A stretch of DNA of 64,000 bases from an uncultured Actinomycetota bacterium (GTDB taxonomy: Bacteria; Actinomycetota; Humimicrobiia; Humimicrobiales; Humimicrobiaceae). The stretch covers positions 1,260-65,259 of the forward strand of contig CAZODQ010000005.1 in assembly GCA_964578625.1 (NCBI GenBank), in the 5' to 3' direction. Each line of letters starts with the position of its first letter. Positions within the stretch are counted from its first letter, which is position 1. Position numbers and translations under genes: made by a program. The notes beneath the pieces are model-generated. The model searched no databases. It saw nothing but the letters and a program-made list of their open reading frames with translations, and had not been told where the DNA came from. Below are positions 7,524 through 58,899 of this stretch, piece after piece.

Positions 7524-8387
7524 ATGAGCATTGTCAAAAGAAAAAATAAAAATCTTATTTATCCTGGTTTCTTATGGTTTTTTATTTTTTTCCTTCTTCC
7601 GCTGTCAGTCATATTGATATATGCAGTGACTAACCAGATCCTGTTTTCAGGGGAACCGGTAAGGTTTACTTTCGAGAATTTTATTGTTATTTTTCAAAAA
7701 AAACACTACCTTATAATACTTTTGAGGACTCTTAAAATCAGCTTTCTTACCACAGTGTTTTCTATGATATTCTCATATCCTGTAGCTTTTTATCTGGCGA
7801 AAAGAACCAGATTTGACAAGGTATTAATAGTGGTTTTAATGATACCTTTCTGGATCAATTATCTTATAAGAACTTTTGCATGGAAATTGATACTTTCCGA
7901 AAACGGAGTTTTAAATCAATTCCTTCTGTGGCTCGGTGTTATTGATGAACCATTAAGGGTATTGTACAGCCAGACTTCTGTCCTGCTTGGTCTTATATAT
8001 ACTTATACCCCAATGATGGTACTGCCGTTGTACGCATCACTTTTAAGAATTGATAATTCCCTTATAGAGGCATCGCTGGATTTAGGGGCATCAAGAGTCA
8101 GATCTTTCTTTGATATAACTTTTAAGTTAAGCCTTACAGGGATTTTTGCAGGAACACTTCTTGTGTTTATACCTGCTCTGGGTTCTTTTGCTATACCGGC
8201 GATACTAGGTGGAACAAATTCGGTGATGATCGGAAATATAATAGAGAATCAGTTCAGCAAAGTTGGTGATTGGAATTTCGGTTCCGCCTTTACCGTTGCG
8301 CTGGCACTGCTTTCAATAGCTCTGGTATTATTTTATTCAAAAATATTTGGACTGGAATCAATTTATAAAAATAGAGGTACTGTTTAG
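7524..8387 (+). CDS. ABC transporter permease (PotB/polyamine-type, BPD_transp_1)
   Basis: Multi-TM protein with an EAS-like loop (IEASLDLGASRVRSFFDITFKL). Confidence 0.75.
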   Translation: MSIVKRKNKNLIYPGFLWFFIFFLLPLSVILIYAVTNQILFSGEPVRFTFENFIVIFQKKHYLIILLRTLKISFLTTVFSMIFSYPVAFYLAKRTRFDKVLIVVLMIPFWINYLIRTFAWKLILSENGVLNQFLLWLGVIDEPLRVLYSQTSVLLGLIYTYTPMMVLPLYASLLRIDNSLIEASLDLGASRVRSFFDITFKLSLTGIFAGTLLVFIPALGSFAIPAILGGTNSVMIGNIIENQFSKVGDWNFGSAFTVALALLSIALVLFYSKIFGLESIYKNRGTV

Positions 8388-8398
8388 GTTTAATAGAG

Positions 8399-9199
8399 AT
8401 GAAAAATAAAAAACCAATTTTTTTAATAATATATACTGCGTTATTCTTCTTATATATTTTTATTCCCATCATCCTTATTTTCATATTTGCCTGGAACAGC
8501 GGTGAAGGTTATAGTTTCCCGCTAGAGGGTTTTACCTGGAAGTGGTTTGCAGAACTGTTCAGAGATCAGCTGGCAAAGAAAGCAATCGGAAACAGTGTCA
8601 TTATTGCAGTTTCATCAGCTACCATTTCAACTGTACTGGCAACGTTTTTATCCATAGGTCTCCTAAAAGGTTTGACCGGGAGGACCGGTTCTTTTTTAAT
8701 TTTACTTATACTTCCGGTAATAATGCCAAGCCTGACTATAGGAATATCAGCACTGGTATTTTTCAGGACCATAAACATTCCACTGGGAGTACCTATAGTG
8801 ATTTTGTCTCATGTATCTATAAGTATGAGTTATGTTTTTTTAATACTGATGGGAAGGATTGAAGAATTGTCATTGAACCTTCAGGAAGCTTCGATCGACC
8901 TCGGTGCAAGCTGGTTTTCGAGTATCAGGGATATAGTAATACCGTTTTTAATACCTGCTGCTATAGCAGGATGGCTGTTTGCTTTCATGATAAGCTGGAA
9001 TGAGTTTATAATAACCTACTTTTTAGTGGGGAATAATCTTACTCTTCCGGTTTATATATTTTCCCAGCTCAGGTTTGGTATTTCACCAAAGGTAAACGTT
9101 ATATCAGTACTTATAACTTTATTTACCTTAAGCATGATTGGAGTTCTGCTTTTAAGCAGAAAAATTTATGGGAAGATCTTAACGAAAGTAAAGATATAA
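8399..9199 (+). CDS. ABC transporter permease (PotC-like)
   Basis: Multi-TM protein with an EAA loop (QEASIDLGASWFSSIRDIVIP). Confidence 0.75.
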   Translation: MKNKKPIFLIIYTALFFLYIFIPIILIFIFAWNSGEGYSFPLEGFTWKWFAELFRDQLAKKAIGNSVIIAVSSATISTVLATFLSIGLLKGLTGRTGSFLILLILPVIMPSLTIGISALVFFRTINIPLGVPIVILSHVSISMSYVFLILMGRIEELSLNLQEASIDLGASWFSSIRDIVIPFLIPAAIAGWLFAFMISWNEFIITYFLVGNNLTLPVYIFSQLRFGISPKVNVISVLITLFTLSMIGVLLLSRKIYGKILTKVKI

Positions 9200-9257
9200 A
9201 CTACTTTTTTTAATCTTTTAATAAAGTATAATAAAAAAACAAAAACAGGAGGTTTTT

Positions 9258-10346
9258 ATGAAAATAATAAAATCCATCATTATTGTATTAATAGTTATAT
9301 TTTTACTATTAATTGCATTTCCAGCCTGTAAGAGCAGAGCAGTGCCTGGAGAGCTTGATGTATATGTGTGGGAAGGATACCTGCCGGAGAAAGTCTCAGA
9401 AATGTTTGAGGAGGAAACCGGTATAAAGCTGAATATCAACTTTATAGCAGATAATGCTTCAATCTTTACTCTGCTTAAAGGTGGAGGACACGCAGATATT
9501 ATCATGCCTACACAAAATCAGGTAAATCGTTTCTACACCGAAAATCTGGCCCAGCCCCTTGATTTGGAAAAAATTCCTAACTACGAAAATGTTTCTGATT
9601 CCTTCAAAAATCAGAGCTGGAGTATGTGGGATGGGAGTCAGATGGGATCAGGGGACACATATGTGATCGCCTATGTGTTTGGGACTAGCGGCATTGTGGT
9701 GAATACTGAAAAATATACCGGCTCGCTTGAAGGAATCGGCTGGGAAATATTATTTGATCCGGAGCTTAAGTCAAGGGTGTCTTCAAGAAATTCTGCAGAG
9801 TCACTGATGATATGCCTGGACCTTCTGGGGATTCCCAGAGAAAATCTTATGACTAATACCCAGGAAACACTTGATGATGCAAGGGATAAGGCAATTGAAT
9901 TAAAAAATAATGTACTTAAATTTTATGATACCGGTGCTGAGCTGCTTGACCTCCTAAACAATGAAGAAGTATGGGTCAGCCATATCTGGGATGGCGGAGG
10001 GAGAAAACTTGAGGCCTCTGATCCGAAATTTAAGTATGTACTGCCCTCAACCGGAGGCTTCGGATGGACTGATACATTTATGATACCTGCAAGTGCGGTA
10101 AATCCCGAAGGTGCATATAAGTTTATTGATTTCATGCTTAGAACTGACATCGCAGCTTTAGTGACTACTGAAGGCGGCTATTCAACTACAGTTAAGGGTT
10201 CGATAGATCTGGCAGAAGGTATAGATAAAGAACTGTACGTATTTACAGAGGATGAACTGAAAAATCTTGTATGGCAATTGAACTTTCCCGAGGATGTGAT
10301 CAAGGCTTATAATGATTTCTGGGAAGAACTCTCGACTGTGGATTAA
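9258..10346 (+). CDS. ABC transporter periplasmic substrate-binding protein (PotD/PotF-like)
   Basis: Signal peptide with lipobox (AFPAC), length and composition fit an SBP, and it sits between the permeases and the ATPase. Confidence 0.65.
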   Translation: MKIIKSIIIVLIVIFLLLIAFPACKSRAVPGELDVYVWEGYLPEKVSEMFEEETGIKLNINFIADNASIFTLLKGGGHADIIMPTQNQVNRFYTENLAQPLDLEKIPNYENVSDSFKNQSWSMWDGSQMGSGDTYVIAYVFGTSGIVVNTEKYTGSLEGIGWEILFDPELKSRVSSRNSAESLMICLDLLGIPRENLMTNTQETLDDARDKAIELKNNVLKFYDTGAELLDLLNNEEVWVSHIWDGGGRKLEASDPKFKYVLPSTGGFGWTDTFMIPASAVNPEGAYKFIDFMLRTDIAALVTTEGGYSTTVKGSIDLAEGIDKELYVFTEDELKNLVWQLNFPEDVIKAYNDFWEELSTVD

Positions 10347-12526: not shown

Positions 12527-12803
12527 CGTTCCTATAAGATTAAGAAAAAGAGTAATGCTGCTACTTTAAATATATAGAGTTTATTTTTTATAATGATTAA
12601 CCTCCAAAGGGATAATTATCTGTTTTTATAATTATACTATTTTTATATTTATTATATAAAAAAGTATGTAGATAAAATATTGATATTCGGAATTATATCT
12701 TAACAAGTGGTAATTAGAAATTATATATTATTTTAAATCCTACTTTTATATAATCTGATAAATATTATAATTATTTTATTGATTTTTATTTTTATACAAA
12801 ACA

Positions 12804-13610
12804 ATGGGTCGGCGGTTACTTAAATTTTTAAAGAAACAAACGTTAAAGGCATTAAAGGAAAAGACTGATTTGATATTGATTGCGGTTTTTATAATCATGA
12901 TCCTGATTTGTATTATAAATAACGCTGTATTGCAGAAAGATTATACGGATGCTGTACAGGGACAACTTGAAAATGCCGGGATTGATAATATAAGCAGCCT
13001 GACTTCTAACAGTGAAGGTTCTACTGAAGCTGATATTGCAGCACCGGCTGATTCAGGTCTTCCGGATGTTGTTGCTGTTGAAGAAATACCGGCAGGAAAT
13101 GACGAATCAGATGAATTAGTTCAAGTACTCGAAGAAGAAGATAATATTATTGTGAAGGGGGATATTATGGAGGAAGACAATTCCTTGGATAATAATCCAG
13201 CCCTTGAAGAAGATCAGGATATTGATTTTAGCAATAGTGATAATTTTAAAATCGAAGTAGATTTAGGAAAACAAAAAGTATTTGTATATTATAAGGAAAA
13301 AATTATAAGAGAAATGGTATGCTCAGGAGGAGCTGAAAGTTCACCTACGCCCACGGGAGAGTTTACAACTTCCCAAAAGATTGAATATGATTGGATAGAA
13401 AGGTTTGATATGGGCGCATACTATTGGGTTAGATTTTACAAAACTTATCTTTTTCACAGCATTCCTTTCGATAAGGAAGGAAATATGATGATGGTGGAAT
13501 ACGAAAAACTCGGAAACCCTGTAAGCCACGGTTGCATCAGGCTGAAAGTGGAAGAGGCAAAATGGTTATATGAAAAGCTGCCTTTGGGAGTAAAAGTACT
13601 TATATATTGA
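12804..13610 (+). CDS. L,D-transpeptidase (YkuD domain) with N-terminal TM anchor and acidic linker
   Basis: The catalytic motif SHGCIRL is near the C-terminus. There is an N-terminal TM helix and an E/D-rich linker. Confidence 0.7.
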   Translation: MGRRLLKFLKKQTLKALKEKTDLILIAVFIIMILICIINNAVLQKDYTDAVQGQLENAGIDNISSLTSNSEGSTEADIAAPADSGLPDVVAVEEIPAGNDESDELVQVLEEEDNIIVKGDIMEEDNSLDNNPALEEDQDIDFSNSDNFKIEVDLGKQKVFVYYKEKIIREMVCSGGAESSPTPTGEFTTSQKIEYDWIERFDMGAYYWVRFYKTYLFHSIPFDKEGNMMMVEYEKLGNPVSHGCIRLKVEEAKWLYEKLPLGVKVLIY

Positions 13611-13678
13611 TTATCAAATATAAAAAAACCAGTTTAACATCAAAATAAAACTTCCTTTATAAAAAGCTATATAGTCGA

Positions 13679-13732
13679 TTGACAAAATAAACACTGGGAA
13701 TATAATTACATTAATATTGAAAATCATTATCA
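13679..13732 (+). promoter_or_regulatory. sigma70-like promoter (TTGACA-16-TATAAT) followed by Fur-box-like 7-1-7 operator TGAAAATCATTATCA upstream of the Fur::NuoE gene
   Basis: ttgaca sits at 13679-13684 and tataat at 13701-13706. tgaaaatcattatca at 13718-13732 matches the Bacillus-type Fur 7-1-7 consensus TGATAATnATTATCA at 14 of 15 positions. Confidence 0.5.
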
Positions 13733-13763
13733 TTATCAATTAATAACTATTAAAACCTGTAAA

Positions 13764-14717
13764 ATGGAGAATAAAAAAAGAGATATTGACGTCTATAAGA
13801 AAAAGATAAAGGATAATGGTTTTAGGCTTACCGGTACCAGAACGGCTGTACTGGACATTATGATTAAAAGTTCCGTAGACTTAGATGCGGAAGAATTATT
13901 TTTCCTATCCCATAAAAAATTCCCCGGAATAGGACAGGCAACGGTCTACCGTACTTTAAAACTTCTGGAAAAAGAAAATCTGGTGGAAAGGACTGGATTT
14001 AAAGACAACAAAGCAAAGTACAGGATAAAGGACAGTAAGGATTTAGGTTTAAGGGATTCTTCTCTAGTGTCAAAAAAAAGTGATGAAGATAAAAGTATAA
14101 AGAAGACAGAGAACAGTCATTCGTTGAAAATTGACCATGAGAATACCTACGGGAGTTACGGAGATATGGAAAGAATAAATGCAATTCAGGATCGGCTTAC
14201 CGGATTGCTCAGTGATTTAAATAAAATAAAAAATAGAAAGGAGCTGGCATTGGAAGATGTAATGAAAGATTTTGGAGAAGTAGATAGAATAGTCGGTAAT
14301 TACCAAAATCAAAAAAGCTGCTTGATACAGATACTTCTGGATGTTCAAAATGAGTATAATTGGCTCCCTAAGCACATTATACTTTACATTAGTAACAAAA
14401 TGGGTATTCCTGTTTCAAATATTTACGATATCACTACTTTTTATAAATATTTTAATTTGGAACCCCGGGGAAAACACTCAATTATAGTCTGCACGGGTAC
14501 GGCATGTCACATCAGGGGAGCAGTGGATCTTCTTCAAAGAATTACTAATGTCCTGGAAATAAAACCAGGAGATACGACCGGCGATTATAATTTTACTCTG
14601 GATACGGTCAATTGTCTGGGCTGTTGTGCGCTGGGTCCCGTGATGATGATTGATAAAAAATATTTTAGCAATCCTTCTATAGTGGAGTTAAAAAAAATAT
14701 TAAAACAATTTAATTAA
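13764..14717 (+). CDS. fusion protein: Fur-family winged-helix DNA-binding domain + linker + NuoE/HndA-type thioredoxin-like [2Fe-2S] domain
   Basis: Residues ~15-95 match the Fur DNA-binding domain (LTGTRTAVLDIM...AEELFFL...IGQATVYRTLKLLEKENLVER...KAKYRI) but lack the Fur metal-binding C-domain. Residues ~190-317 match the NuoE 24-kDa subunit (IVCTGTACHIRGA...VNCLGCCALGPVMMID). Confidence 0.7.
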   Translation: MENKKRDIDVYKKKIKDNGFRLTGTRTAVLDIMIKSSVDLDAEELFFLSHKKFPGIGQATVYRTLKLLEKENLVERTGFKDNKAKYRIKDSKDLGLRDSSLVSKKSDEDKSIKKTENSHSLKIDHENTYGSYGDMERINAIQDRLTGLLSDLNKIKNRKELALEDVMKDFGEVDRIVGNYQNQKSCLIQILLDVQNEYNWLPKHIILYISNKMGIPVSNIYDITTFYKYFNLEPRGKHSIIVCTGTACHIRGAVDLLQRITNVLEIKPGDTTGDYNFTLDTVNCLGCCALGPVMMIDKKYFSNPSIVELKKILKQFN

Positions 14718-14751: not shown

Positions 14752-16671
14752 TTGAAAATGAAAGCAAAAAATAAAAAAATTAGTTCCTTAAAAGATTTAA
14801 AGGAAAAAGCCGGTGAGTTTGAGAAAAAACTTGAAGGATGCACAGTTATTTCAATATGCTCAGGGACAGGATGTATGGCTTATTCCTCTGATGTTATTTA
14901 CAGCGGGCTCAGAAAGGAAATTGAAAAGCAAAGTAATAAAAGTATTAAGAAGATTGTCCTAAAGAGAACGGGATGCCATGGATACTGTGAAAGAGGTCCG
15001 ATCATAGTTATACACCCGCAGGAAATATGTTATCTGGGAGTAAAGGAAAAAGATATACCGGAAATCGTTGAAAAAACTATAAAAGGTGAGATCGCCGAAA
15101 GTCTTCTTTATAAAGATGAACAGGGAAATCCGATAATCAAGGAAACTGATATTCCATTTTATAAGTTTCAGAAAAGGATTATTTTAAGCAATAATTCTAA
15201 GATAGATCCTGCAAGTATTGACGATTATATAAGGATAGGAGGTTACCAGTCTCTGGCGAAGGTTTTAAAACAAATGCACCCCGAAGAAGTATTACAGGAA
15301 GTAAAGAATGCCAATCTGAGAGGCAGGGGCGGTGGCGGTTTTCCAGCCGGTGTTAAATGGGAGACCACCAGAAAAGCTCATGCTGAACCCAAATATGTAA
15401 TAGTCAATGCAGATGAAGGAGACCCCGGCGCTTATATGGATAGGAGTGTACTGGAAGGCAATCCTCATAGTATTTTAGAAGGTCTTACCATAGGAGCATA
15501 TGCGATAGGTTCAGAAAAAGGTTTTATATATGTCAGACAGGAATATCCTCAAGCGGTAGTTAATGTAAATAAGGCGATCAAGCAGGCTAAAGAGTACGGA
15601 TTCCTGGGTAAAAATATATTAGGCTCCGGATTTGATTTCGATATAGAAATCCACCGGGGTGCAGGAGCTTTTGTCTCAGGAGAATCGAGTGCGTTAACAG
15701 CTGCAATTGAAGGTTGTGTCGGCGAGCCAAGGCTAAAATATATAAGAACTGCTGTAAGCGGTTTATGGGGTAAACCAACAAATTTAAATAATGTTGAGAC
15801 CTGGGCTAATGTTCCATTGATCATAAAAAGTGGTGCTGATTGGTTCAGGAGCATGGGGACCAAAAACAGCAGCGGGACGAAAATCTTTTCACTGGTCGGT
15901 AAAGTTAAAAATACAGGATTGGTCGAAGTTCCAATGGGAATCAGCCTCAGGGATATTATTTATAAAATTGGCGGCGGTATTAAATATGATAAAAAGTTTA
16001 AAGCTGTACAAACCGGAGGTCCATCCGGAGGAGTAATTCCTGAAAAGCTGCTTGATCTCCCGGTTGATTTTGATGAGTTGACCAAAGCGGGATCGATGAT
16101 GGGTTCCGGTGGAATGATTGTTATGGATGAATCAGACTGTATGGTAAATGTAGCACATTATTTCCTAAAATTTTTAGCGGATGAATCGTGCGGCAAATGT
16201 GTTCCCTGCAGAGAGGGCTTAAGGCAGATGATTTATATCTATGAAAGGATAATGGAAGGAAAAGGCCGGGAAGAAGATCTGCAGCTTCTGGAAGATTTAT
16301 CGCTGCTGCTTAAGGAAGCTTCCTTATGTGCTCTGGGGAATACTGCACCGAATATTGTACTGACTACTCTAAAGTATTTCAGAGAGGAGTATGAAGCTCA
16401 TATTTTTGATAAAAAATGTCCTGCAAAAGTCTGCAAGTCTTTGATAAGTTATATCATAGATAAAAATAAATGTGCCGGCTGCGGAAGCTGCATGAAGGTG
16501 TGTCCGGTAAATGCAATAAGCGGGGAAAAGAAAAAACCACATGTTATAGATGACGAAATCTGCATCAGATGCGGTTCTTGCATAGAAGCCTGTCCGAGGA
16601 AGTATGATGCTATTGAAAAGAAGACAGGATTAATTGCAGAGAGGGTAAAACAGAGTTTAATCGGAGAATAA
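14752..16671 (+). CDS. NuoF-like NADH-binding flavoprotein subunit (HndC/HydB type) with N-terminal Trx-like [2Fe-2S] domain and C-terminal 2x[4Fe-4S] ferredoxin domain
   Basis: The NAD/FMN site is [14 protein letters not shown] and the N3 cluster site is [12 protein letters not shown]. The C-terminus has [12 protein letters not shown] and [12 protein letters not shown]. The N-terminus has the CSGTGC...CHGYC 2Fe-2S pattern. Confidence 0.85.
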
Positions 16672-16711: not shown

Positions 16712-17335
16712 ATGATTATGAATAATAAAAAAGATAGTTTGTCTGAGAAAAAAATTAATGTAATTATAGATGGTCAAAACATTAAAGTGAATAAAGGTGA
16801 TACCATACTACAGACTGCTGAGAAGACCGGGATTCATATTCCCAAATTGTGTTATCACGAGAAAATAAAACCCCATGGGGCCTGCAGATTATGTATTGTC
16901 GAAGTAGAAAAAAAAGGAAGGTCAAAGATAGTTGCCTCCTGTGCTTATCCTGTTGAAGAGGGGCTTATAATCAATACGGAGAGTCCAAAGGTGGAACTGG
17001 TCAAAAAAAATCTTGTGGAATTATATCTTGCATTATTCCCCTTCAATCCTGAAATAAAAAGACTGGCTAAAAAGTACAAACTGAGCAAAACTAGGTTTAA
17101 AAAAGAGAACAATTATTGCATCCTGTGCGGGTTATGTGTAAGGTATTGCAGGGAAGTAAAGAAAAATAATGCCATAGGTTTTGTAGGTAGGGGTATAAAT
17201 AAAAAAGTTGTTTTCATTCCCGATTCTGCTTATTTCAAGTATTGTGAAAACTGTATGGAATGTATGGATATCTGTCCTACAGGAGTGTTCCCTTCCAATT
17301 ATGGAATAGAGAGAATTCCGCAGATTAGCGAGTAG
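16712..17335 (+). CDS. small iron-sulfur protein resembling the N-terminal [2Fe-2S]/[4Fe-4S] region of NuoG/HndD, with no catalytic domain
   Basis: A 2Fe-2S ferredoxin-like N-terminus (CYHEKIKPHGACRLCIVEVE...SC) is followed by 4Fe-4S motifs (CILCGLCVRYC and CENCMECMDICP). The protein is 207 aa. Confidence 0.6.
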   Translation: MIMNNKKDSLSEKKINVIIDGQNIKVNKGDTILQTAEKTGIHIPKLCYHEKIKPHGACRLCIVEVEKKGRSKIVASCAYPVEEGLIINTESPKVELVKKNLVELYLALFPFNPEIKRLAKKYKLSKTRFKKENNYCILCGLCVRYCREVKKNNAIGFVGRGINKKVVFIPDSAYFKYCENCMECMDICPTGVFPSNYGIERIPQISE

Positions 17336-17394: not shown

Positions 17395-18294
17395 TTATCT
17401 AAAAAAGAAATCAGCCCATATTTCGATAAATGAGGTATCCATATTTGGTGATTTCTTCTTATTTTTCCACAAATTCTTGAATCTATGATAGTCTTGTGTC
17501 CTGTTGATGTTAAAAAAATTAAGATCATCTATTCCACTTAATTCAAGATGGTAATTTAAAATAGTATCGATATTGAGATAATTAAAAATATCCGATATTT
17601 TATATTTTTTCTTTTCGATATTTTCTTCTAAAATATCCAAACAGTATTTTGAGTACAGCCCGCACAGTACTTCAAAACCTTTTTCAGTTTTAATTATTCT
17701 TGCGGCTTTTGTCCTGTTGTAACCGCTGTGTGCTGATATCGGTATGCTTTCATCTGACTCTTTGATATCAGCTTTTATATTATATATTAATAGCTGTAGT
17801 AATTTATATGAGATAAAAGGCATATCAAATGCGGTAATAATGGCGTAAAAATGGGCTGCACTGGAAAGACCTGTATATATACCGATGATAGGACCTTTGG
17901 CCGGATAACTCCGTAAATACTTTTTAGAGCCGGAAGTATCTGGATTACCAATATTGTTTCCATCCAAGATTATTCTTATGTTGGTATTTATGTCCGGGAA
18001 CATAGGAATTTTTTTACCAAGTTTTTCAGGATTCATTTTTAAATATCTTTTTATTTTGGAAGTATACAGCTTTTTAAAATCATATTTTTCTTGGTATTTT
18101 TTTATTTTTTCCAGTTCAGAAAAGACTATGGGATAGTTGTTAGCGGAAGTACTTATTATGATTTCATCACAAAAAAAACTTAGTTTAAAAATCTGGTCTA
18201 TAAAAAGGGGTACTGAACCGATTTTAATTTTTAATTTATTGAGACCGAATCTGCTCCCTTTTCCCCCTGTTAAAATTATACCTGTCAGATTCAT
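17395..18294 (-). CDS. MobA-like molybdenum cofactor guanylyltransferase domain protein with C-terminal extension
   Basis: The N-terminus (GIILTGGKGSRFG) matches the MobA nucleotide-binding loop. It is co-oriented downstream of fdhD and fdhA. Confidence 0.55.
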   Translation of the reverse strand: MNLTGIILTGGKGSRFGLNKLKIKIGSVPLFIDQIFKLSFFCDEIIISTSANNYPIVFSELEKIKKYQEKYDFKKLYTSKIKRYLKMNPEKLGKKIPMFPDINTNIRIILDGNNIGNPDTSGSKKYLRSYPAKGPIIGIYTGLSSAAHFYAIITAFDMPFISYKLLQLLIYNIKADIKESDESIPISAHSGYNRTKAARIIKTEKGFEVLCGLYSKYCLDILEENIEKKKYKISDIFNYLNIDTILNYHLELSGIDDLNFFNINRTQDYHRFKNLWKNKKKSPNMDTSFIEIWADFFFR

Positions 18295-19118
18295 TTGATT
18301 ATTCTCCGCGAATATGAATAAATATTAAATCTGCCGCTCCTTGCATATCCAATAGAAGTCAGACACATTTTTTTCGCAAGAGTAGCAGCACTAAAAGATA
18401 CAGAAGAATTGGTGACTACAATAGGGATTTGCATTCTGCAGATCTTATATACCAAATCAATACTCAATCTTCCGGTAGTGAATATTATTTTATCCTGGGG
18501 AATCAAATTACTTATCAGCATATAACCTGCGATTTTATCGATGCAATTATGCCTTCCAATATCTTCTGCCATATTAAGAAGATCACCGTTACTGTTAAAT
18601 AAGGTAGCACTGTGTAAACCTCCAAATTCTTTTTTATATTTCTGACGGTTTATAGTCTCTTTATTCAGTTTAAGTATAGTACTGGATTCAACCCTGACAT
18701 TGCTCTTTATCTTCTTCAGGCCTTTTTCTAATATAAGATCATCAATACTGCCGCATCCCGAAGATATAAATCTAGGGTTACTCTGAATTTCTTTTTTCTT
18801 TTTATCTGCAGCGGTTACAACTTCTATTCTTAAAGCCAGATCATTTCTGCTTATAATTTTATTTATATCATGGCTGCATATTTTTAAAAGCTCAATATCC
18901 GAATAATTTTGGATGTAATTGTTATTGACCAGATAACCGACTGTAAGTTCGATCAGGCTGGCGGGGGAACATGAGATTAATACAATATCACGGCTATTCA
19001 AAGAGATTGTTAAAATCAGTTCGAAGGGAATGGTATCGATTAGCTCAGACCTGCCTGAAGAGGCTTTAATTTTTTCGATTTTAATATTTTTACCTAATTT
19101 TGAAGTTTTTCTTCCCAT
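18291..19118 (-). CDS. fdhD: formate dehydrogenase accessory sulfurtransferase FdhD
   Basis: The EDIGRHNCIDK motif, the size and the position next to fdhA all fit FdhD. Confidence 0.75.
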   Translation of the reverse strand: MGRKTSKLGKNIKIEKIKASSGRSELIDTIPFELILTISLNSRDIVLISCSPASLIELTVGYLVNNNYIQNYSDIELLKICSHDINKIISRNDLALRIEVVTAADKKKKEIQSNPRFISSGCGSIDDLILEKGLKKIKSNVRVESSTILKLNKETINRQKYKKEFGGLHSATLFNSNGDLLNMAEDIGRHNCIDKIAGYMLISNLIPQDKIIFTTGRLSIDLVYKICRMQIPIVVTNSSVSFSAATLAKKMCLTSIGYARSGRFNIYSYSRRIIK

Positions 19119-19121
19119 TTA

Positions 19122-21863
19122 TTATATCTTCTTCAAATCAACGGCGCAGACTTTAAATTCCGGGATCTTTGCTTTAGGATCCAATGCAGGATTGGTCAAA
19201 ATATTGGCAGGAGAATCTGCATAATGGAATGGTATAAATACCACTCCTTTTTTGATTCTTGGGCTTACTAATGAAGATGCTGCAATCTTACCTCTTTTTG
19301 ATCTTACTTCTACTCTGTCTCCACTCTTGATTCCGAGATTTTCCGCATCCTCTGAATTGATGTGTACCAGATTTGCAGGTGCGATTTCATTTAAACCTTT
19401 GACTTTACCGGTCATTGTCCTGGTATGAAACTGATACAGGATCCTGCCGGTAGTTAGGATATAGGGATATTCTTTGTTAGTTGTCTCTGCTGGAGGTGAA
19501 TGCTTTACGGGGATAAACCTGCCTTTTCCTCTGCTAAATACATTTGAATGTAAAACACTTGTGCCAGGGTCATTATAGTTTCTGCAGGGCCACTGCAGGG
19601 CTTTCTTTTCAAGTCGGTGGTAGCTTATACCGCCGTAAATAGGAGCAAGGTCGGCAATCTCGTCCATAATTTCGGAAGTATTATTATAATTCATGGGATA
19701 ACCCATCATATTTGACAGCATACAGATGATTTTCCAGTCGGGAATGGCACTGCCAGGCGCATCAACTGCCTTCCTTACTCTCTGGATTCTTCTGTCTGTG
19801 TTTGTGAAGGTCCCCTCTTTTTCAGCAAAACAGGTACCCGGCAGGACCACATCGGCAAATTCTCCCGTTTCGGTTAAAAAGATATCCTGGACCACAAACA
19901 TATCAAGCTTCTTTAGAGATTCAGCTACGTGTAGCAGATCCGGGTCACTGAGCATCATATTTTCTCCCATTACGTAAATAGCCTTTATTCTGCCTGAATT
20001 TGCACCATCGATTATTTCGGTTACCGTAAGACCTTTGGTCGATGGTAAGGTTTTCTTCCATTTCTCTTCAAATTTTAGTTTCAAGTCGTTGTTTTCTACA
20101 GACTGATATCCGCATAACAGATCAGGAAGTGCACCCATATCGCATGCTCCCTGTACATTGTTCTGACCCCTTAAAGGATTCACTCCTGTTCCCTTTCTGC
20201 CGATATTACCGGTCATCATTGCCAGGTCTGCCAGAGCAATGACGTTATCGGTACCACAGGTATGTTGGGTAATGCCCATTGCATAGAAGATGGAAGCATT
20301 TTTAGCAGAACCGTAGACTTTTGCTGCCTTGATAAGATCCTGCCTGTCGACTCCGGAAATCCTTGCAGCTTTTTCCGCGGTATATGATGAAAAACATTTT
20401 ATAAACTCATCGAAATTCTCGGTTCTGTCTTTGATAAATATTTTATCGTATAGATTATTATCATATATCATCTTTGCCAGCCCTAAAATAACGGCTATGT
20501 CCGTACCCGGTTTCTGTCTTAAATGTATGGTCGCATATTTTGTGATGGGAATATTCCGGGGATCAATTACGATCAGCTTAAGCCCGTTTTCCTGAACACA
20601 TCTTATGATCTCATAGCCTATGACCGGATGAGTCTCTGTTGTATTTGAACCTATTATTATTGCAGCATCGGAATACTTTATATCATCGACCGAATTGGTC
20701 ATTGCTCCGCTTCCAAAAGTGGGTATCAAGCCTGTGACCGTCGATGCATGGCACAGCCTTGCACAGTGATCTATATTATTGGTACCTATTACCGCACGGG
20801 CGAATTTGGACATCAGGAAATTTTCCTCATTGGTGCATTTGGCAGAACTTAAGACTCCAATGGAATCCGGACCGTATTTTTCCTTTATTGCGGTGAGCTT
20901 ATCAGAAATGATACCAAGTGCCTTTTTCCAGCTTACACTTTTGAATTTACCTTCTTTTGTTTTTATCATAGGGGATTTTAGCCTCTTGGGGCTGCCCACA
21001 AAGTCCATGCCGAATTTTCCCTTGACACATAAGTTACCCCTGTTTACATGCTTTCCAATTTCAGAGGTAACATTTACAATCTGGTTATCTTTTATATGCA
21101 GGTCTATTACACAGCCGACCCCGCAGTAGGGACAGGTGGTCCGGACTTTTACCGATTCCCAGATACGACCTTTTTTAATATAAGTTTTAGACTGAAGAGC
21201 ACCGACGGGGCAGGTAGAAATACAATTCCCGCATAAAACACAATCTGTTTTTTTTAGCGACTGCTCAAAAGCAGGAACTATTTCGCATTCAAAGCCCCTT
21301 CCGGCATAGCCGATAGCGTTTGCGCCGACAACATCATCACATATCCTTACACATCTTCCGCATAGTATACATTTCGCATTATCTCTTAATATAAATGGGT
21401 TATCCATAAGGACTTTTTTTTCATGCACCTTACCGCGGTAAGTGATATCCTTGATGTTATAAATATAGGCAAGGTCCTGAAGGATACAGTTACCGCAGGA
21501 TTCACAGGTTATACAGTCCAGAGGATGGTCCGATAAGATAAGTTCAAGATTTACTCTGACAAGCTCATTTAGATGGGGGGTGTTTGTTTTAATCCTCATT
21601 CCTTCCCGTACCTTTGTTACACATGAGGCAACCACTTCAGGTATCCCTTCTACTTCAACAAGGCAGAGCCTGCAGGCACCCTGGGGTTTGAGCCTGAGGT
21701 CAAAACAGAGGTGAGGTATAAAAATATTATTGTCCAGACAGGTTTCTAAAATACTTTTTCCCTGTAAGGTATATATTGCCCTATTATTGATGTAGATTTT
21801 AATTTGTTGGCTTATGCTGTCTTTATTTTTACTGATTTCTTTTGATGGTCTTTTTTCTAGCAT
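19122..21863 (-). CDS. fdhA: formate dehydrogenase catalytic (alpha) subunit, molybdopterin-dependent, Cys-type, with NuoG-like N-terminal 2Fe-2S and 4Fe-4S domains
   Basis: The N-terminus has CFDLRLKPQGACRLC (2Fe-2S) plus ferredoxin 4Fe-4S motifs. A molybdopterin oxidoreductase domain follows. The HCARLCHAST segment has Cys at the position that carries Sec or Cys in FdhF. There are no in-frame TGA codons. Confidence 0.85.
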   Translation of the reverse strand: MLEKRPSKEISKNKDSISQQIKIYINNRAIYTLQGKSILETCLDNNIFIPHLCFDLRLKPQGACRLCLVEVEGIPEVVASCVTKVREGMRIKTNTPHLNELVRVNLELILSDHPLDCITCESCGNCILQDLAYIYNIKDITYRGKVHEKKVLMDNPFILRDNAKCILCGRCVRICDDVVGANAIGYAGRGFECEIVPAFEQSLKKTDCVLCGNCISTCPVGALQSKTYIKKGRIWESVKVRTTCPYCGVGCVIDLHIKDNQIVNVTSEIGKHVNRGNLCVKGKFGMDFVGSPKRLKSPMIKTKEGKFKSVSWKKALGIISDKLTAIKEKYGPDSIGVLSSAKCTNEENFLMSKFARAVIGTNNIDHCARLCHASTVTGLIPTFGSGAMTNSVDDIKYSDAAIIIGSNTTETHPVIGYEIIRCVQENGLKLIVIDPRNIPITKYATIHLRQKPGTDIAVILGLAKMIYDNNLYDKIFIKDRTENFDEFIKCFSSYTAEKAARISGVDRQDLIKAAKVYGSAKNASIFYAMGITQHTCGTDNVIALADLAMMTGNIGRKGTGVNPLRGQNNVQGACDMGALPDLLCGYQSVENNDLKLKFEEKWKKTLPSTKGLTVTEIIDGANSGRIKAIYVMGENMMLSDPDLLHVAESLKKLDMFVVQDIFLTETGEFADVVLPGTCFAEKEGTFTNTDRRIQRVRKAVDAPGSAIPDWKIICMLSNMMGYPMNYNNTSEIMDEIADLAPIYGGISYHRLEKKALQWPCRNYNDPGTSVLHSNVFSRGKGRFIPVKHSPPAETTNKEYPYILTTGRILYQFHTRTMTGKVKGLNEIAPANLVHINSEDAENLGIKSGDRVEVRSKRGKIAASSLVSPRIKKGVVFIPFHYADSPANILTNPALDPKAKIPEFKVCAVDLKKI

Positions 21864-21896
21864 TTGAACCTGCTTTTTGCCATTTCTAAATTATAA

Positions 21897-24800
21897 TCAC
21901 ATTGCCATATCAGATAGTGATTTAATCGCTTTTTCTCCGTCTTTGGTCTCTAAGTCACATCTGAGGCAGCGCCTGGCTTCTCTTACAGCTTCCTCTTCAG
22001 TTATATTTAAATTGACTTCATTGAAATTCTTTATTCTATCACCTGCAGGCAGACAGGGTACCATAGGTCTTACTGCTTCTTTGGTTTCTTTTTCCGACGA
22101 TTCGACATAAGGCGGTATGTACCTTGAAGGCCGTGTCAGTTTATATTCTCTTACCAATTCTTTCCCTTTGATATATTTGTCAATCATCTCCGCTGCAATG
22201 TTGCCGGCTGACATAGCATTTATTACAGTACCGGGTCCGGTAACAACATCTCCACCTGCGAAAACTCCTTTCATATTTGTGGCCAGGGTTTCCGGACATA
22301 CTGCTATTGAACCTGTTTGGGAGATTTCCACACTCTTTTTTTTACCGAGACAGTAAAGGTCGGGCTCTTCTCCTATTGCAACGATTAAGTTATCAAGATC
22401 GATGACCGATTCCGAACCTTTAATGGGGATGGGTCTTCTTCTGCCGGTTTCATCAGGTTCACCGAGCTTCATTTTTATACATTTGACTCCTGTGATCTTT
22501 CCGGCTTTGGTCATTATTCCTACAGGTGCTGTAAGGAACTTGATTTCAACCCCTTCTTCTATTGCAGCATTTATCTCTTCCTCGAGCGCAGGCATTTCTT
22601 TTCTTGTTCTCCGGTAAAGTATAATGACTTTCCTGCAGTCTTTGACTCTTAATGCAGACCTGGCCGAGTCTATGGCAGAATTACCGCCTCCGATGATCCC
22701 TACTTTTTTACCTATACTGACTTTTTCATTACATTTTATATCTTTTAAAAAGTCCAGAGCATCGATAACGCCCTCTGCATCTTCGTTGGGAATACATAGA
22801 TTTCGTGATTTATGAGCTCCGGTAGCTATAAATACAGCCTTATGGCTTCCCACCAATTCTTTGAATGATATATCTTTTCCAACCTTTGTGTTTGTTTTAA
22901 TTTCTACACCGGCATTTCTGATATTTTCTATATCCATTTCAAGCACATCCGAGGGTAGTCTGTATTCCGGTATATAGGCAGCCAGTGCTCCTCCGGGGAC
23001 ATCCAACTGCTCAAAAATCGTAACATCATATCCTTTACATGCAAGCCTGTAACCGGCTGTCAATCCAGCTGGTCCCGAACCGATTATAGCTACTTTTTCT
23101 CTACCTTGTTTTTGCTCTTTTGGTCTGAGGTATATTCCTTCCTTCAGTGCATATTCGGTGGCAAACTTTTTAAGTGCTCTAATGGCAATAGGACTGCCCC
23201 ACTTTCCGGTCATACATTTGGATTCACAGGGGTGGTGACATACTCTGGCACAAACAGACGGCAGGGGATTATCTTTGAGGATTATATCAAATGCTTCTCT
23301 GAAACGTCTTGCTGCTATTAAAGATATATAGGTTGAAGCTTCCGTATCGATAGGGCATACATGCTGACATGGTGATGAGATTATCTCCCTGCATACAACA
23401 GCGGGACATTTTTTATATCTCACATGTGCTTCGTACTCGTGGTGAAAATAACAGATTGTATTGATCACGGGGTTTGGAGCAGTCTTGCCCAATCCGCACA
23501 AGGAAGTCTCTTTAATTACTGCTGCAAGTTTTTCAAGCTTTTCAATATCATCTTTTTCTCCCTTACCCTGGGTTATTTTCTCAAGTAATTCCAGCATTCT
23601 TCTGGTACCTATTCTGCAGGGAACACATTCACCGCATGATTCTTCCTGTATAAATTCCATGAAATATCTTGCGAGGTCTACCATACAGGTATCTTCATCC
23701 AGGACTATCATACCGCCTGAACCCATTATCGCACCGATTTCCTTGACCTTTTCATAATCTACGGGAATATCAAGGTATTTTTCAGGTATGCATCCTCCCG
23801 ATGGACCTCCTATCTGTACCGCTTTGAATTTTTTACCCTTTTTTAATCCTCCTCCTATTTTAAAGACAATATCTCTAATGGTCATACCCATAGGTACTTC
23901 GACCAGGCCGACATTGTTAACGGCTCCTGCCAGGGCAAATATTTTTGTGCCCTTACTGGTCTCGGTCCCGATGCTGTTAAACCATTTTGCTCCGTTTAAA
24001 ATTATCTGGGGTATATTTGAAAGTGTCTCAACATTATTTATAAGTGTAGGCATTCCGTAAAGGCCTTCCTGTGCGGGAAACGGAGGTCTTGGTCTGGGCA
24101 TTCCCCTTTTCCCCTCAATAGACTGTATCAGAGCAGTTTCTTCACCGCACACAAATGCACCGGCACCCTGATATATCTCTGCATCGAAACTAAAACCGCT
24201 GCCAAGTATGTTTTTTCCGATAAGACCGTAATCCCTTGCCTGCCTTATAGCATACTCAAGAGTCCTGACTGCAAGGGGATATTCTATCCTTATATACAGA
24301 TAGCCTTTATTTGAACCAATGGCAAAAGCTGCTATTAACATTCCTTCTAGAATGGAATGGGGATCGGATTCAAGCAGGTTTCTATCCATAAATGCACCGG
24401 GATCTCCTTCATCACCGTTGCATATTACATACTTGATCCCGCTTGCTGATTCTGCATTTCTGCAAAATTCCCATTTTATACCGGTAGGGAAACCTGCGCC
24501 ACCCCTTCCCCGCAAACCTGATTCTTTAATGATTTTAATTATCTTTTCGGGACTGCCGGATTCAATAGCCAGGACTAGAGCGGAGTAACCGTCTTTTACA
24601 ATGTAGTCTTCTATCCTAAAGGGGTTGATTTTACCCCTGTTTCTAAGGACTCTTGATTCCTGGTACCTGTAAAAGTTTGCCAGCTCAGAATCTTCTGTTA
24701 TTGGATCAAGTTCTTTCGGTATTATACCGTTATCTATGTGGCTTTTAAATATCCTTTTTACCTTATCACTGTCAAGACTGTGATAGGTGACCGTCGGAAG

Positions 24801-25073
24801 GTTGTATGATTCAACAGTCAGCATCGGTTCAAGGGCGCAGAATCCAACGCACCCTGAGGTGGTAAATTCAATATTGCTTCTTTTTCCGGAGGCCATTTCC
24901 TCTTTGACTGAATTTTGTATTGTTTCTGCTCCTGAAGCTATGCCACATGTTCCGAGATGAACGGTTATCCTGTATTTGTTTTTTCTGCTTGTAAGGACTT
25001 TTTTCCTGTTTAACTCTTCCTTTATATTTTTAAGGTCCTCTTTATTTTTTATTTTCAAAGATTTTTTATTCAA
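21897..25073 (-). CDS. 1058-aa fusion: Trx-like [2Fe-2S] domain + NuoF-like NAD(H)/FMN/[4Fe-4S] flavoprotein + GltD-like (glutamate synthase small-subunit type) Fe-S/FAD/NAD(P)H oxidoreductase domain
   Basis: The NuoF part shows GLRGRGGAGFPTGIKWE and ESCGECVPCRIG. Cys clusters (CPAVVCREIISSPC...CARVCHHPCESKC) are followed by GltD-type dinucleotide folds (VAIIGSGPAGLTAGY and VGIIGGGNSAIDSA). Confidence 0.8.
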   Translation of the reverse strand: MNKKSLKIKNKEDLKNIKEELNRKKVLTSRKNKYRITVHLGTCGIASGAETIQNSVKEEMASGKRSNIEFTTSGCVGFCALEPMLTVESYNLPTVTYHSLDSDKVKRIFKSHIDNGIIPKELDPITEDSELANFYRYQESRVLRNRGKINPFRIEDYIVKDGYSALVLAIESGSPEKIIKIIKESGLRGRGGAGFPTGIKWEFCRNAESASGIKYVICNGDEGDPGAFMDRNLLESDPHSILEGMLIAAFAIGSNKGYLYIRIEYPLAVRTLEYAIRQARDYGLIGKNILGSGFSFDAEIYQGAGAFVCGEETALIQSIEGKRGMPRPRPPFPAQEGLYGMPTLINNVETLSNIPQIILNGAKWFNSIGTETSKGTKIFALAGAVNNVGLVEVPMGMTIRDIVFKIGGGLKKGKKFKAVQIGGPSGGCIPEKYLDIPVDYEKVKEIGAIMGSGGMIVLDEDTCMVDLARYFMEFIQEESCGECVPCRIGTRRMLELLEKITQGKGEKDDIEKLEKLAAVIKETSLCGLGKTAPNPVINTICYFHHEYEAHVRYKKCPAVVCREIISSPCQHVCPIDTEASTYISLIAARRFREAFDIILKDNPLPSVCARVCHHPCESKCMTGKWGSPIAIRALKKFATEYALKEGIYLRPKEQKQGREKVAIIGSGPAGLTAGYRLACKGYDVTIFEQLDVPGGALAAYIPEYRLPSDVLEMDIENIRNAGVEIKTNTKVGKDISFKELVGSHKAVFIATGAHKSRNLCIPNEDAEGVIDALDFLKDIKCNEKVSIGKKVGIIGGGNSAIDSARSALRVKDCRKVIILYRRTRKEMPALEEEINAAIEEGVEIKFLTAPVGIMTKAGKITGVKCIKMKLGEPDETGRRRPIPIKGSESVIDLDNLIVAIGEEPDLYCLGKKKSVEISQTGSIAVCPETLATNMKGVFAGGDVVTGPGTVINAMSAGNIAAEMIDKYIKGKELVREYKLTRPSRYIPPYVESSEKETKEAVRPMVPCLPAGDRIKNFNEVNLNITEEEAVREARRCLRCDLETKDGEKAIKSLSDMAM

Positions 25074-25089
25074 TTAATTGCTTTCTTTA

Positions 25090-25581
25090 TTATTTCCGGG
25101 AATAAATAAGATCCATAACTTCTTTAGGATTGACCTTTTGGTGTATTTTATCATTAATCACAACTGTAGGTGCAAGACCGCAGGCACCAAGGCAGCGGTT
25201 AATTTGCAGCGAGTACTTCCTGTCCGCTGTAGTTTGACCTGGTTTAATTTCAAGTTCTTTTACAATCTTATCAACTATTCTCTTGCCGCCTTTAACAAAA
25301 CATGCAGTACCAAGGCAGACCCTTATATTGTTTTTTCCTCTTGGGATCATTGAAAAGAAAGAATAGAAGGTGGAGACGCCGTAAACATCCTTTTCGGGAA
25401 TACCGAGTACTTTTGCAACTTTTTTCTGGATTTCCACCGGAATAAATCCGATATCTTTCTGGATCGCCTGCAATACTGGTATCAGCGCTCCTTTTTTACC
25501 TTTATATTCTTTTAATGTTTTATCGATTTTTCTGATTTCTTCAGATTTTAACTCATATTTCGGCAGACCGGTAATTTGCAT
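25090..25581 (-). CDS. NuoE-like 24-kDa [2Fe-2S] subunit (FdhG/HndA type), first gene of the minus-strand formate dehydrogenase operon
   Basis: RVCLGTACFVKGG...INRCLGACGLAPTVVIND carries the NuoE Cys pattern. The protein is 163 aa. Confidence 0.85.
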   Translation of the reverse strand: MQITGLPKYELKSEEIRKIDKTLKEYKGKKGALIPVLQAIQKDIGFIPVEIQKKVAKVLGIPEKDVYGVSTFYSFFSMIPRGKNNIRVCLGTACFVKGGKRIVDKIVKELEIKPGQTTADRKYSLQINRCLGACGLAPTVVINDKIHQKVNPKEVMDLIYSRK

Positions 25582-25761
25582 GGTATTCCTTTCAGGAGAT
25601 TAAAGAACAATAATTCAGTAAAACTTTACCATAGATTTATTCTCAAAGATTATAACAAAATATTTTTAATAATTGTAATGTATTTGCTATTATTAAACAT
25701 AGAAAATCTGAAATTATATTTTCTGCAATAAATAAAGGGTCAAACGTCTTATAACAGTATA

Positions 25762-26952: not shown

Positions 26953-26958
26953 ACCGGG

Positions 26959-27267
26959 GTGTATAATAAGATTATGAAAAATTTTGAAGATATAAGAAGT
27001 ATAATAGGAGATGTCGTAAAAAGATCAAATATGAGACAGAGGTTAAACATATCCAATATCTTTAATCATTGGGAGGAGATTGTCGGTACTGAAATATATA
27101 AAAAAACAAAGCCCGAAAGAATAACCGGGGGAACATTGTATTTATCGGTTTCAACTTCTATATGGGCAAATGAACTGAGTCTCATGTCCGACAAATTGAT
27201 TGAAAAAATCAATTCATTTATCGGTGAAGAAGTAGTTAAAAATATAAGATTTAGGCAAAATCTTTAG
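26959..27267 (+). CDS. DUF721 (YaaB/RemB-like) protein
   Basis: A small protein between recF and gyrB, as in Firmicutes origin regions. The sequence is consistent with DUF721. Confidence 0.6.
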   Translation: MYNKIMKNFEDIRSIIGDVVKRSNMRQRLNISNIFNHWEEIVGTEIYKKTKPERITGGTLYLSVSTSIWANELSLMSDKLIEKINSFIGEEVVKNIRFRQNL

Positions 27268-27464
27268 CCTATTTTAGGCAAATTTGAAGTGAAATATGGT
27301 ATAATATTTAGAGGCTAAAATAGCATAGTTATCAGGCATTTTTTTGGGAAAATATTTACATTTAAGCAAGAAAGGGTAATGGATATCAAAGTATTTTTAA
27401 AGTCTGCTTATTGCCCTTTATCAATATTCTAAAGAGGAAATTATACATTTAAGAGGAGATTTTT

Positions 27465-29369: not shown

Positions 29370-29381
29370 TCGGGAGCATAA

Positions 29382-32942: not shown

Positions 32943-33019
32943 GGGCCTATAGCTCAGTTGGTTAGAGCGCATCCCTGATAAGGATGAGGCCTCTGGTTCG
33001 AGTCCAGATAGGCCCACCA
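32943..33019 (+). tRNA. tRNA-Ile (anticodon GAT), CCA encoded
   Basis: gggcctatagctcagttggttagagcgcatccctGATaaggatgaggcctctggttcgagtccagataggcccacca has cloverleaf features, a GGTTCGAGTCC T-arm and a GAT anticodon. Confidence 0.9.
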
Positions 33020-33035
33020 GTTTTTCACTTCTTGT

Positions 33036-33111
33036 GGGGGTGTAGCTCAGTTGGGAGAGCGCCTGCCTTGCAAGCAGGAGGTCAGCGGTTCGATCCCGCT
33101 CATCTCCACCA
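33036..33111 (+). tRNA. tRNA-Ala (anticodon TGC), CCA encoded
   Basis: gggggtgtagctcagttgggagagcgcctgccttGCAagcaggaggtcagcggttcgatcccgctcatctccacca has the G3:U70 pair diagnostic for tRNA-Ala and a TGC anticodon. Confidence 0.9.

Positions 33112-56203: not shown

Positions 56204-58899
<2,696 letters not shown>

Follow-up and report, generated by a model that had tools for sequence, protein, structure and literature searches.

Background

The short list of trigger enzymes includes PutA, BirA, and NadR. The archetype is the flavoenzyme PutA (proline utilization A) of E. coli and Salmonella. PutA has a ribbon-helix-helix (RHH) domain at its N-terminus and represses its own operon, and its DNA binding is traded against the functional and redox state of the enzyme. 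Regulators that sense through a [2Fe-2S] cluster are likewise well known (SoxR, IscR, and RsrR), and iron-loaded Fur represses when iron is plentiful. The gene described here joins a Fur-type DNA-binding domain (DBD) to a BfuC (NuoE/HydC-like) oxidoreductase subunit. It is located in a stretch of 64,000 nt from an uncultured Actinomycetota bacterium of the Humimicrobiaceae (contig CAZODQ010000005.1), hereafter called the window, and it heads a three-gene operon whose promoter is directly followed by a Fur-box array. A DBD joined to an enzyme subunit and a cognate-type operator at the promoter of the same gene, the features expected of a trigger enzyme, are found together in all 22 fusion loci for which upstream DNA was collected. 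Judged from these sequence comparisons, it is fairly probable that the fusion protein is a BfuC enzyme subunit that represses its own operon through the fused Fur head, i.e. a putative trigger enzyme.

Domain architecture of the fusion protein

The open reading frame (ORF) at 13764..14717 (+) encodes a protein of 317 aa in which Pfam detects two domains. Residues 18-91 match FUR (PF01475, E 1.4e-14) over profile positions 2-76 of 121 only, and residues 174-316 match 2Fe-2S_thioredx (PF01257, E 7.8e-47) over positions 2-144 of 145. An earlier note on this DNA had read from the letters alone a Fur winged helix at about residues 15-95, the loss of the metal-binding dimerization domain of Fur, a K/D/S-rich linker, and a complete C-terminal NuoE/HndA [2Fe-2S] domain, and had proposed a search with these two Pfam models. 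All of this is borne out by the Pfam matches and by an AlphaFold2 model of the single chain, which was built from a 25-sequence alignment of the family. The model consists of a winged helix (residues 8-88), a disordered segment (92-134, predicted local distance difference test score (pLDDT) 24-35), a single long helix (133-178), and a NuoE fold.

On the plus strand, the DBD (residues 8-90, supported by Pfam, AlphaFold2, and a PDB match to M. gryphiswaldense Fur, and lacking the Fur metal ligands) is encoded at 13785..14033. It is followed by the disordered K/D/S-rich linker at 14034..14156 (residues 91-131, pLDDT 24-35), whose length varies in the family, and by a long amphipathic heptad helix at 14157..14297 (residues 132-178), which is apparent from AlphaFold2, hydrophobic periodicity, and conservation. 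The NuoE/HydC-type thioredoxin-like [2Fe-2S] domain occupies 14298..14714. The C-terminal dimerization domain of Fur is absent according to both the Pfam profile coverage and the AlphaFold2 model, and disorder and the helix follow the DBD instead. The helix is ~45 residues long, with hydrophobic residues at a periodicity of 3.5 residues. Among the BfuC forms compared, it is restricted to proteins that bear an N-terminal module. It is a candidate dimerization or coupling element.

The cluster motif of the NuoE domain is C-x4-C-x35-C-x3-C, and its four ligands (C243, C248, C284, and C288) are all invariant in the family. Foldseek matches the domain to HydC, NfnC, and NuoE at a probability of 1.00. 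Among solved structures, it is closest to HydC/BfuC subunits from the electron-bifurcating complexes HydABC, NfnABC, Stn, and Wor, with 38-44% identity over residues 170-316. In every feature tested, the ORF is a BfuC/NuoE-family subunit. Its membership in the Fur family is partial: the DBD is present, the dimerization domain and both metal sites are not. Among the NCBIfam models, the N-terminus matches a Bacillus-type Fur model best, and the models closest to the C-terminus are HoxE (top), NuoE, and FDH-gamma, all under their equivalog cut-offs. An identity as HoxE was considered and rejected, as the protein reaches 139.7 bits, well short of the required 224 bits, and no hoxYH or other hydrogenase genes are found in the neighborhood.

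DNA-reading residues and metal site of the Fur head

In the structures of M. gryphiswaldense Fur (MgFur) bound to DNA, T17, Q19, R20, and T54 touch the DNA backbone, Y56 and R57 read bases, and K15 reads the minor groove (PMC4506495). In a phmmer alignment, MgFur K15, T17, R20, T54, Y56, and R57 correspond to R21, T23, R26, T60, Y62, and R63 of the fusion. T23, R26, T60, Y62, and R63 are invariant across the fusion family, and the same five positions are also invariant in an alignment with canonical Fur proteins. The DBD metal ligands H33 and E81 of MgFur correspond to D39 and R87, and both of these positions are variable in the family. Between the DBD and the NuoE domain, the family alignment contains no His cluster and no CxxC pairs, i.e. 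neither the regulatory metal site nor the structural Cys4 zinc site of Fur. Judging by its conserved contact residues, the fused head should still recognize a Fur box. It cannot be metal-switched as Fur is, because the dimerization domain, the Cys4 zinc site, and the regulatory metal ligands are missing.

The possibility that the head is a recent duplicate of a neighboring stand-alone fur gene was also considered and is unsupported. Stand-alone paralogs are linked to the operon in part of the fusion loci (see below), and their identity to the head is 25-30%, no closer than that of B. subtilis Fur (31%).

Promoter and Fur-box operator

The fusion gene is preceded by a sigma-70-type promoter at 13679..13706 (+) with a consensus score of 12/12. 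Its -35 element TTGACA (13679-13684) is located 85 bp and its -10 element TATAAT (13701-13706) 58 bp upstream of the ATG, with a spacer of 16 bp. The promoter itself had been recognized in the earlier note; the distance of about 45 bp to the ATG given there fits the box and not the promoter. Eleven bases past the -10 begins the Fur-box array TTGAAAATCATTATCATTATCAA (13717..13739, no strand assigned), which spans ~+5 to +26 of the predicted transcript and comprises two overlapping 7-1-7 sites. The first of these, TGAAAATCATTATCA (13718-13732), deviates at one position from the Bacillus 7-1-7 Fur box TGATAATnATTATCA, in agreement with the 14 of 15 matching positions counted before. The second (13724-13738) has two mismatches. 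When the sequence is read directly, the classical 19-bp Fur box is also matched at 17/19 positions by the reverse complement of 13719-13737.

The concern that such a motif might be no more frequent than expected in AT-rich DNA is not borne out. In the 64-kb window, the array holds the single site with ≤1 mismatch, compared to 0.04 expected from dinucleotide-preserving shuffles. An Rfam scan of the whole window returned two tRNAs only, with no riboswitch or known RNA in the leader. The region 13611-13763 contains no meaningful repeat except a palindrome around the -10.

A further site of this type is located upstream of ykuD (12804-13610). At 12756-12770, TGATAAATATTATAA forms a Fur/PerR-hybrid 7-1-7 site, two mismatches away from either consensus. 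It directly follows a TATATAAT and is kept as CTGATAAWTATTATA upstream of the ykuD orthologs in loci L001 and L003. It could act as a second operator, used by a protein of the Fur family.

Conservation of the operator across fusion loci

The 22 distinct fusion loci with upstream DNA encode proteins down to ~46% identity. In each of them, a TTGAC(A) -35 and a -10 element are followed at once by TGATAATCATTATCA(TTATCA)n. The 7-1-7 box is perfect in 9 loci, has ≤1 mismatch in 16/22, and ≤2 mismatches in 22/22. It is found 31-120 bp before the start codon and at a near-constant 31-45 bp from the -35; the remaining intergenic DNA is unconserved between the loci. Apart from this position, sites with ≤1 mismatch are rare: one other, inside L084, is found in ~206 kb (the first eleven fusion loci, with the 64-kb window counted in), and 836 kb of non-fusion loci contain one.

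Three synteny clades can be distinguished. In clade A (window, L001-L004, L088-L094), ykuD is located upstream of the operon. In clade B (L006, L084-L086, L095), the operon is located after a cluster for carbon monoxide dehydrogenase/acetyl-CoA synthase (CODH/ACS), and a stand-alone Fur-family gene diverges from the same intergenic region, with a 61-aa ORF in between. In clade C (L087, L096-L099), a small ORF is divergent and a Fur-like gene is encoded after the operon. The linked Fur-like genes are found at 9033-9518 (-) in L084, 6984-7478 in L085, 8905-9447 in L086, 3247-3732 in L006, and 13902-14390 in L087, as well as in L096-L099. They are accompanied by a conserved ORF of 61-64 aa without a Pfam match, e.g. 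at 9647-9832 (-) in L084.

Distribution of the fusion family

With protein clusters grouped at 90% identity, the family comprises at least 119 clusters. Both Pfam domains are present in 119 of the best 120 homologous clusters, in proteins of similar length (286-374 aa) and down to 46% identity. The frameshift that the earlier note had named as a possible objection is thus not found, and the fusion is a single gene. In pairwise comparisons within the family, identity averages 48% over the DBD, 55% over the helix, 70% over the NuoE domain, and 11% over the linker. The protein of the window is encoded identically on four independent contigs.

Members with a named source stem from metagenome-assembled genomes of Actinomycetota (Candidatus Hydromicrobium americanum, Humimicrobiaceae, 'Actinobacteria bacterium') of the class Candidatus Humimicrobiia; two clusters bear the label Nitrososphaeraceae archaeon. 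A scan of one genome per GTDB species yielded six full-length fusions, all from Actinomycetota, and a metagenome scan yielded twelve further distinct fusion loci. In a search of residues 1-99 against 1.84 billion representative proteins (50% identity library), 15 matches were obtained at E ≤1e-10. One of these is a clearly identifiable full-length fusion (a representative of 329 aa). Three other long matches (331-352 aa) align in two stretches and are presumably tandem Fur domains. This search indicates that the Fur::BfuC family is narrow in the library of representatives. In the databases, its members are annotated as 'NADH-quinone oxidoreductase subunit E' or as hypothetical.

Operators of orthologous operons with other heads

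The same three-gene operon, with a full-length BfuB of 62-67% identity, is found in Dehalococcoidia, Desulfobacterota, Acidobacteriota, Myxococcota, and archaea, where BfuC occurs in several forms. In most loci it has no N-terminal extension. Others carry a receiver (REC) domain, a basic 'MARGN...' segment (Dehalococcoidia), or an RHH-like module of ~50 residues, and the Fur head is the form of the Humimicrobiia.

The RHH-like form is found in Desulfobacterota, Acidobacteriota, Chloroflexota, and an archaeon (Hecatellales) (L008, L009, L011, L012, L013, L020, L021, L022, L024, and L039), with the consensus ..K.KS..VGVR..EEQ...LS.LQK.S.LSK.D.LLKGLE.L. for its module. The AlphaFold2 model shows an extended segment, helices at 15-28 and 32-52, and then a long helix like that of the Fur fusion. 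Proteins of this kind are numerous: of the 120 best clusters, more than 100 align over at least 92% of the query length, all of them annotated as plain NuoE. In every RHH-like locus, the motif GT(T/A)AAACnGT(T/A)AAAC is located downstream of a -10-like hexamer and ahead of the start codon. The palindrome GTTAAACnGTTTAAC is matched with ≤1 mismatch six times in 1.43 Mb of collected loci, each time 18-36 bp upstream of an RHH-like gene. In L011, for example, the BfuC gene is located at 7881-8597 and the operator at 7849-7863.

The two operators do not mix. The palindrome GTTAAACnGTTTAAC is not found at loci with a Fur head, no Fur box is found at RHH-like loci, and loci with a REC-fused or unfused BfuC have neither. 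The type of operator thus tracks the fused head at the same promoter position, which favors autoregulation by the fused head; an unrelated global Fur predicts no such switch.

A REC-fused BfuC is encoded at 1870-3000 in L037, with a Pfam Response_reg match (E 1.2e-26) and without a DNA-binding domain. Further REC candidates were assigned by sequence motif or inspection only (L010, L015, L016, L017, L027, L041, and L043), six of them by sequence motif alone. In view of the REC versions, the heptad helix may generally serve to couple an N-terminal signaling module to the BfuC domain. The Dehalococcoidia BfuC proteins (L014 8181-8840, L019, L025 7424-8077, and L029) combine the 'MARGN...' tail with a '...VSDKLGIP.SQIS...' segment and give faint helix-turn-helix matches only.

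Operon partners and genomic context

The fusion gene is followed by a BfuB/HydB-type NuoF subunit at 14752..16671 (+) and a small BfuA/HoxU-like (NuoG-N-terminal-like) subunit of 207 aa at 16712..17335 (+). Both were identified by Pfam and NCBIfam, in line with the NuoF and NuoG-N-terminal genes proposed before. BfuB directly follows the fusion gene in every fusion locus that reaches far enough, with 61-86% identity across these loci, and the small BfuA is the conserved third gene of the operon. No other NuoE gene is present in the operon, so the fusion protein is paired with the NuoF/HydB gene as expected of a BfuC subunit.

In true Bfu cores, BfuB carries an N-terminal [2Fe-2S] cluster and two C-terminal [4Fe-4S] clusters, which are absent in non-bifurcating NuoF homologs (Schut et al. 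2022, PMC9304861). BfuB of the window is composed of an N-terminal [2Fe-2S] thioredoxin-like domain (residues 23-108), the 51K FMN/NADH domain, NADH_4Fe-4S, and two C-terminal Fer4 motifs (567-616), and thus has this set of clusters. Because its cluster complement agrees with that described by Schut et al., the operon is assigned as an NAD(H)-linked flavoprotein core composed of BfuC, BfuB, and the small BfuA. The small BfuA has [2Fe-2S] and [4Fe-4S] cluster motifs only and no catalytic domain, and the operon is without a catalytic third-substrate module.

The operon adjoins formate dehydrogenase (FDH) genes in the window and L001 or a CODH/ACS cluster in L006 and L084-L086. From these neighbors, a connection with the Wood-Ljungdahl pathway may be suspected. 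The carbonyl-branch cluster of CODH/ACS directly precedes the operon in clade B (L084 1-9030, L085 1-6953, L086 1708-8915, L006 255-3232), a placement that hints at a Bfu core serving redox balancing in the acetogenic or acetyl-CoA pathway.

In the window, a second NuoE/NuoF-type module is convergent to the operon (17395-25581, -). It comprises genes for NuoE (25090-25581), a protein of 1058 aa in which NuoF is joined to a GltD-like NAD(P)H/FAD domain (21897-25073), a formate dehydrogenase of 913 aa whose N-terminus is NuoG-like (19122-21863), FdhD, and a MobA-like protein. The module may represent a formate dehydrogenase that is NAD(P)-linked or bifurcating. The earlier note had suggested looking for the box upstream of this FDH operon. 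Its promoter is without a Fur box; no site with ≤3 mismatches is found in 25582-25761. Further along the window, a recF-like gene, gyrB, and gyrA (25762-31814, +) are followed by two tRNA genes (32943-33108, +), an order typical of origin-proximal regions; no GC-skew switch is visible in the window. A PerR-like regulator (56204-56680, +) overlaps katG (56656-58899, +; 1343 bits to the NCBIfam catalase/peroxidase model) by 25 nt, an arrangement suggestive of a peroxide-stress pair; the organism is apparently an anaerobe.

Proposed mechanism and alternative explanations

In the proposed mechanism, the flexible linker would tether the Fur-type winged-helix head to the N-terminus of BfuC, and the heptad helix and NuoE domain would take the place of the dimerization and metal-sensing half of Fur. 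Two or more heads (two, or four given the array of 3-5 hexamers) would be paired by the helix or by oligomerization of the complex. The paired heads would bind the Fur-box array just downstream of their own -10, block initiation or promoter escape, and repress the operon in this way. Occupancy of the array would be set by dimerization or assembly and possibly by the [2Fe-2S] cluster, whose redox state or occupancy could act via folding or dimerization of the NuoE domain. Since the ~40-residue linker is long, disordered, and variable, control through oligomeric state and avidity is envisaged rather than rigid allostery. Beyond the observed architecture, operator and promoter layout, DNA-contact conservation, and co-variation of operator and head, we infer that the fused head is the binder, that binding represses, and that occupancy depends on dimerization or assembly. 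Autoregulation had already been suggested in the earlier note, and the box in 22/22 loci, the invariant DNA-contact residues, and the operator switch with the fused module now back it.

Several points weigh against self-repression by the fused head. All evidence is computational, and the organisms are uncultured. The assignment of the relatives as RHH-like draws on weak matches to Pfam RHH_3 and TraY (E about 0.06) and on the secondary structure in the AlphaFold2 model, and a PDB profile search with their N-termini returned nothing significant. In HydABC of T. maritima, the HydC subunits are located on separate outer lobes and oligomerization proceeds via HydA (PMC9499530); because these subunits sit apart, the pairing of heads is predicted to rely on the extra helix or on the long linker. 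A canonical Fur may be encoded elsewhere in the genome of the window, beyond the 64 kb. Finally, a Fur-family gene of 161-180 aa is linked to the operon in clades B and C (2/3 clades), and this paralog shares the T/R/T/Y/R DNA-contact residues, keeps CxxC...CxxC, and could bind the same box.

From these last observations follows an alternative in which the box is an ordinary operator for a stand-alone Fur-family protein, either the linked Cys4-only paralog or an unseen canonical Fur, and the operon belongs to an iron or metal regulon, with the fused head competing, cooperating, or doing something else. The extra GATAATCA half-site that clade B has upstream of the -35, facing the divergent genes, would suit this explanation, as would the perfect Bacillus-type 7-1-7 site in 9 distinct loci. 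However, the clade of the window keeps the box although no homolog of the paralog or of the small ORF is encoded in the 64 kb, where the only Fur-like gene besides the fusion is the PerR-like one beside katG. The paralog itself has no His-rich regulatory ligands and is thus not a classical iron sensor. Moreover, a classical Fur repressor site on the operon of an Fe-S-rich enzyme is physiologically odd, because holo-Fur represses at high iron; repression of an Fe-S enzyme by holo-Fur would run contrary to the established logic of Fur. The invariant DNA-contact residues of the fused head and the operator switch at the RHH-like fusions are both left unexplained. Control by a stand-alone Fur is therefore considered unlikely.

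It is more doubtful that the fusion is mainly a transcription factor with a wider regulon, e.g. the Wood-Ljungdahl pathway, and that its NuoE domain forms, jointly with BfuB and BfuA, a redox sensor that equilibrates with NADH/ferredoxin. The [2Fe-2S]-sensing regulators SoxR, IscR, and RsrR are a precedent for such a function, and the operon adjoins FDH or CODH/ACS genes. In HydABC, the cluster of HydC is located near the FMN (PMC9499530). On the other hand, the sole other site with ≤1 mismatch in the scanned fusion loci is the one inside L084, and the FDH promoter has no box. The conservation of BfuB across phyla (62-83% identity) fits a working enzyme rather than an accessory of a sensor, and a disordered linker of 40 residues is a poor conduit for allostery. 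Least of all can the fusion be taken for a relic without function or for two genes that were wrongly joined in assembly or annotation. Nothing was found in favor of this, the sole consideration being that many contigs are metagenome assemblies. Independent samples and assemblers yielded the same single ORF in at least 119 clusters, it recurs in 22 distinct loci, and the identical protein is encoded on four independent contigs; a frameshift or mis-assembly was rejected on these grounds. The DBD is also clearly constrained in comparison to the linker (48% versus 11% mean identity). By these comparisons, the probability of an artefact or relic is close to nil and the reading is effectively refuted.

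Implications

Repression of the operon by its own BfuC subunit would be the first case of a Fur DNA-reading head that was detached from its metal-sensing dimerization domain and reused on another scaffold, and would amount to a natural experiment on what Fur requires for box recognition. It would also mean that a bifurcating core of the HydABC/Bfu type regulates its own synthesis via one subunit, that a multi-subunit Fe-S/flavin complex joins the trigger enzymes, and that the conserved three-subunit Bfu core was important enough to gain three different regulatory heads across lineages. The small DBD and the 23-bp operator form a testable pair from uncultured anaerobic Actinomycetota.

A broader generalization is possible and put forward tentatively, being rather doubtful at present: the BfuC subunits of one three-gene Bfu core could be a widespread, unrecognized class of signaling subunits in bacteria and archaea. 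In these, a DNA-binding head or a phospho-receiver on the heptad helix would couple the NADH/ferredoxin poise via the [2Fe-2S] cluster to the transcription of the own operon, independently of Rex. By lineage, the class would comprise RHH-like heads in Desulfobacterota, Acidobacteriota, Chloroflexota, Thermodesulfovibrionales, Bathyarchaeota, and Thermoplasmatota, phospho-receivers in Desulfobacterales, Myxococcota, Planctomycetota, and others, and Fur-type heads in Humimicrobiia.

Comparison with known systems

Literature searches for Fur/NuoE fusions, for Humimicrobiia, and in papers on Bfu enzymes for regulators returned no description of Fur, RHH-like, or REC fusions, which agrees with the statement of the earlier note that no characterized Fur::NuoE architecture is known. 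The fusion probably joins the trigger enzymes and one-component regulators, with a mode of self-repression that is apparently undescribed.

On the enzyme side, the BfuC subunits of HydABC, NfnABC, Stn, and Wor resemble the fusion in sequence (38-44% identity), in the four Cys ligands, and in a partner BfuB with the clusters of a Bfu core. In contrast to the fusion, these subunits are 150-190 aa long and have no DNA-binding or signaling module, and the operon of the window has only the small BfuA and no third-substrate module. HoxE of HoxEFU is the top NCBIfam match of the C-terminus, and the gene order with a HoxU-like small subunit agrees; the score is below the cut-off, however, and no hoxYH is adjacent.

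On the regulatory side, members of the Fur family such as B. subtilis Fur and MgFur (4RB1, 4RB3) have the winged-helix fold and the DNA-contact residues in common with the fusion, whose presumed target is likewise a perfect or near-perfect Fur box. Unlike them, the fusion is without the C-terminal dimerization domain, the structural Cys4 zinc site, and the regulatory metal ligands. Rex, SoxR, IscR, and RsrR would be possible functional analogs should DNA binding be controlled by the cluster or by the NADH/NAD+ poise, but they have unrelated folds and are dedicated regulators rather than oxidoreductase subunits.

Functionally, PutA appears to be the closest known system, by analogy. A relationship in sequence does not exist. 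In the fusion, the DBD is of the Fur winged-helix type and is attached to a small [2Fe-2S] subunit of a multi-subunit complex instead of the catalytic flavoprotein; a switch by membrane association as in PutA is not evident. Common to both are a DBD on an enzyme and operators at the own promoter, and the RHH-like::BfuC relatives bring the parallel to PutA closer still.

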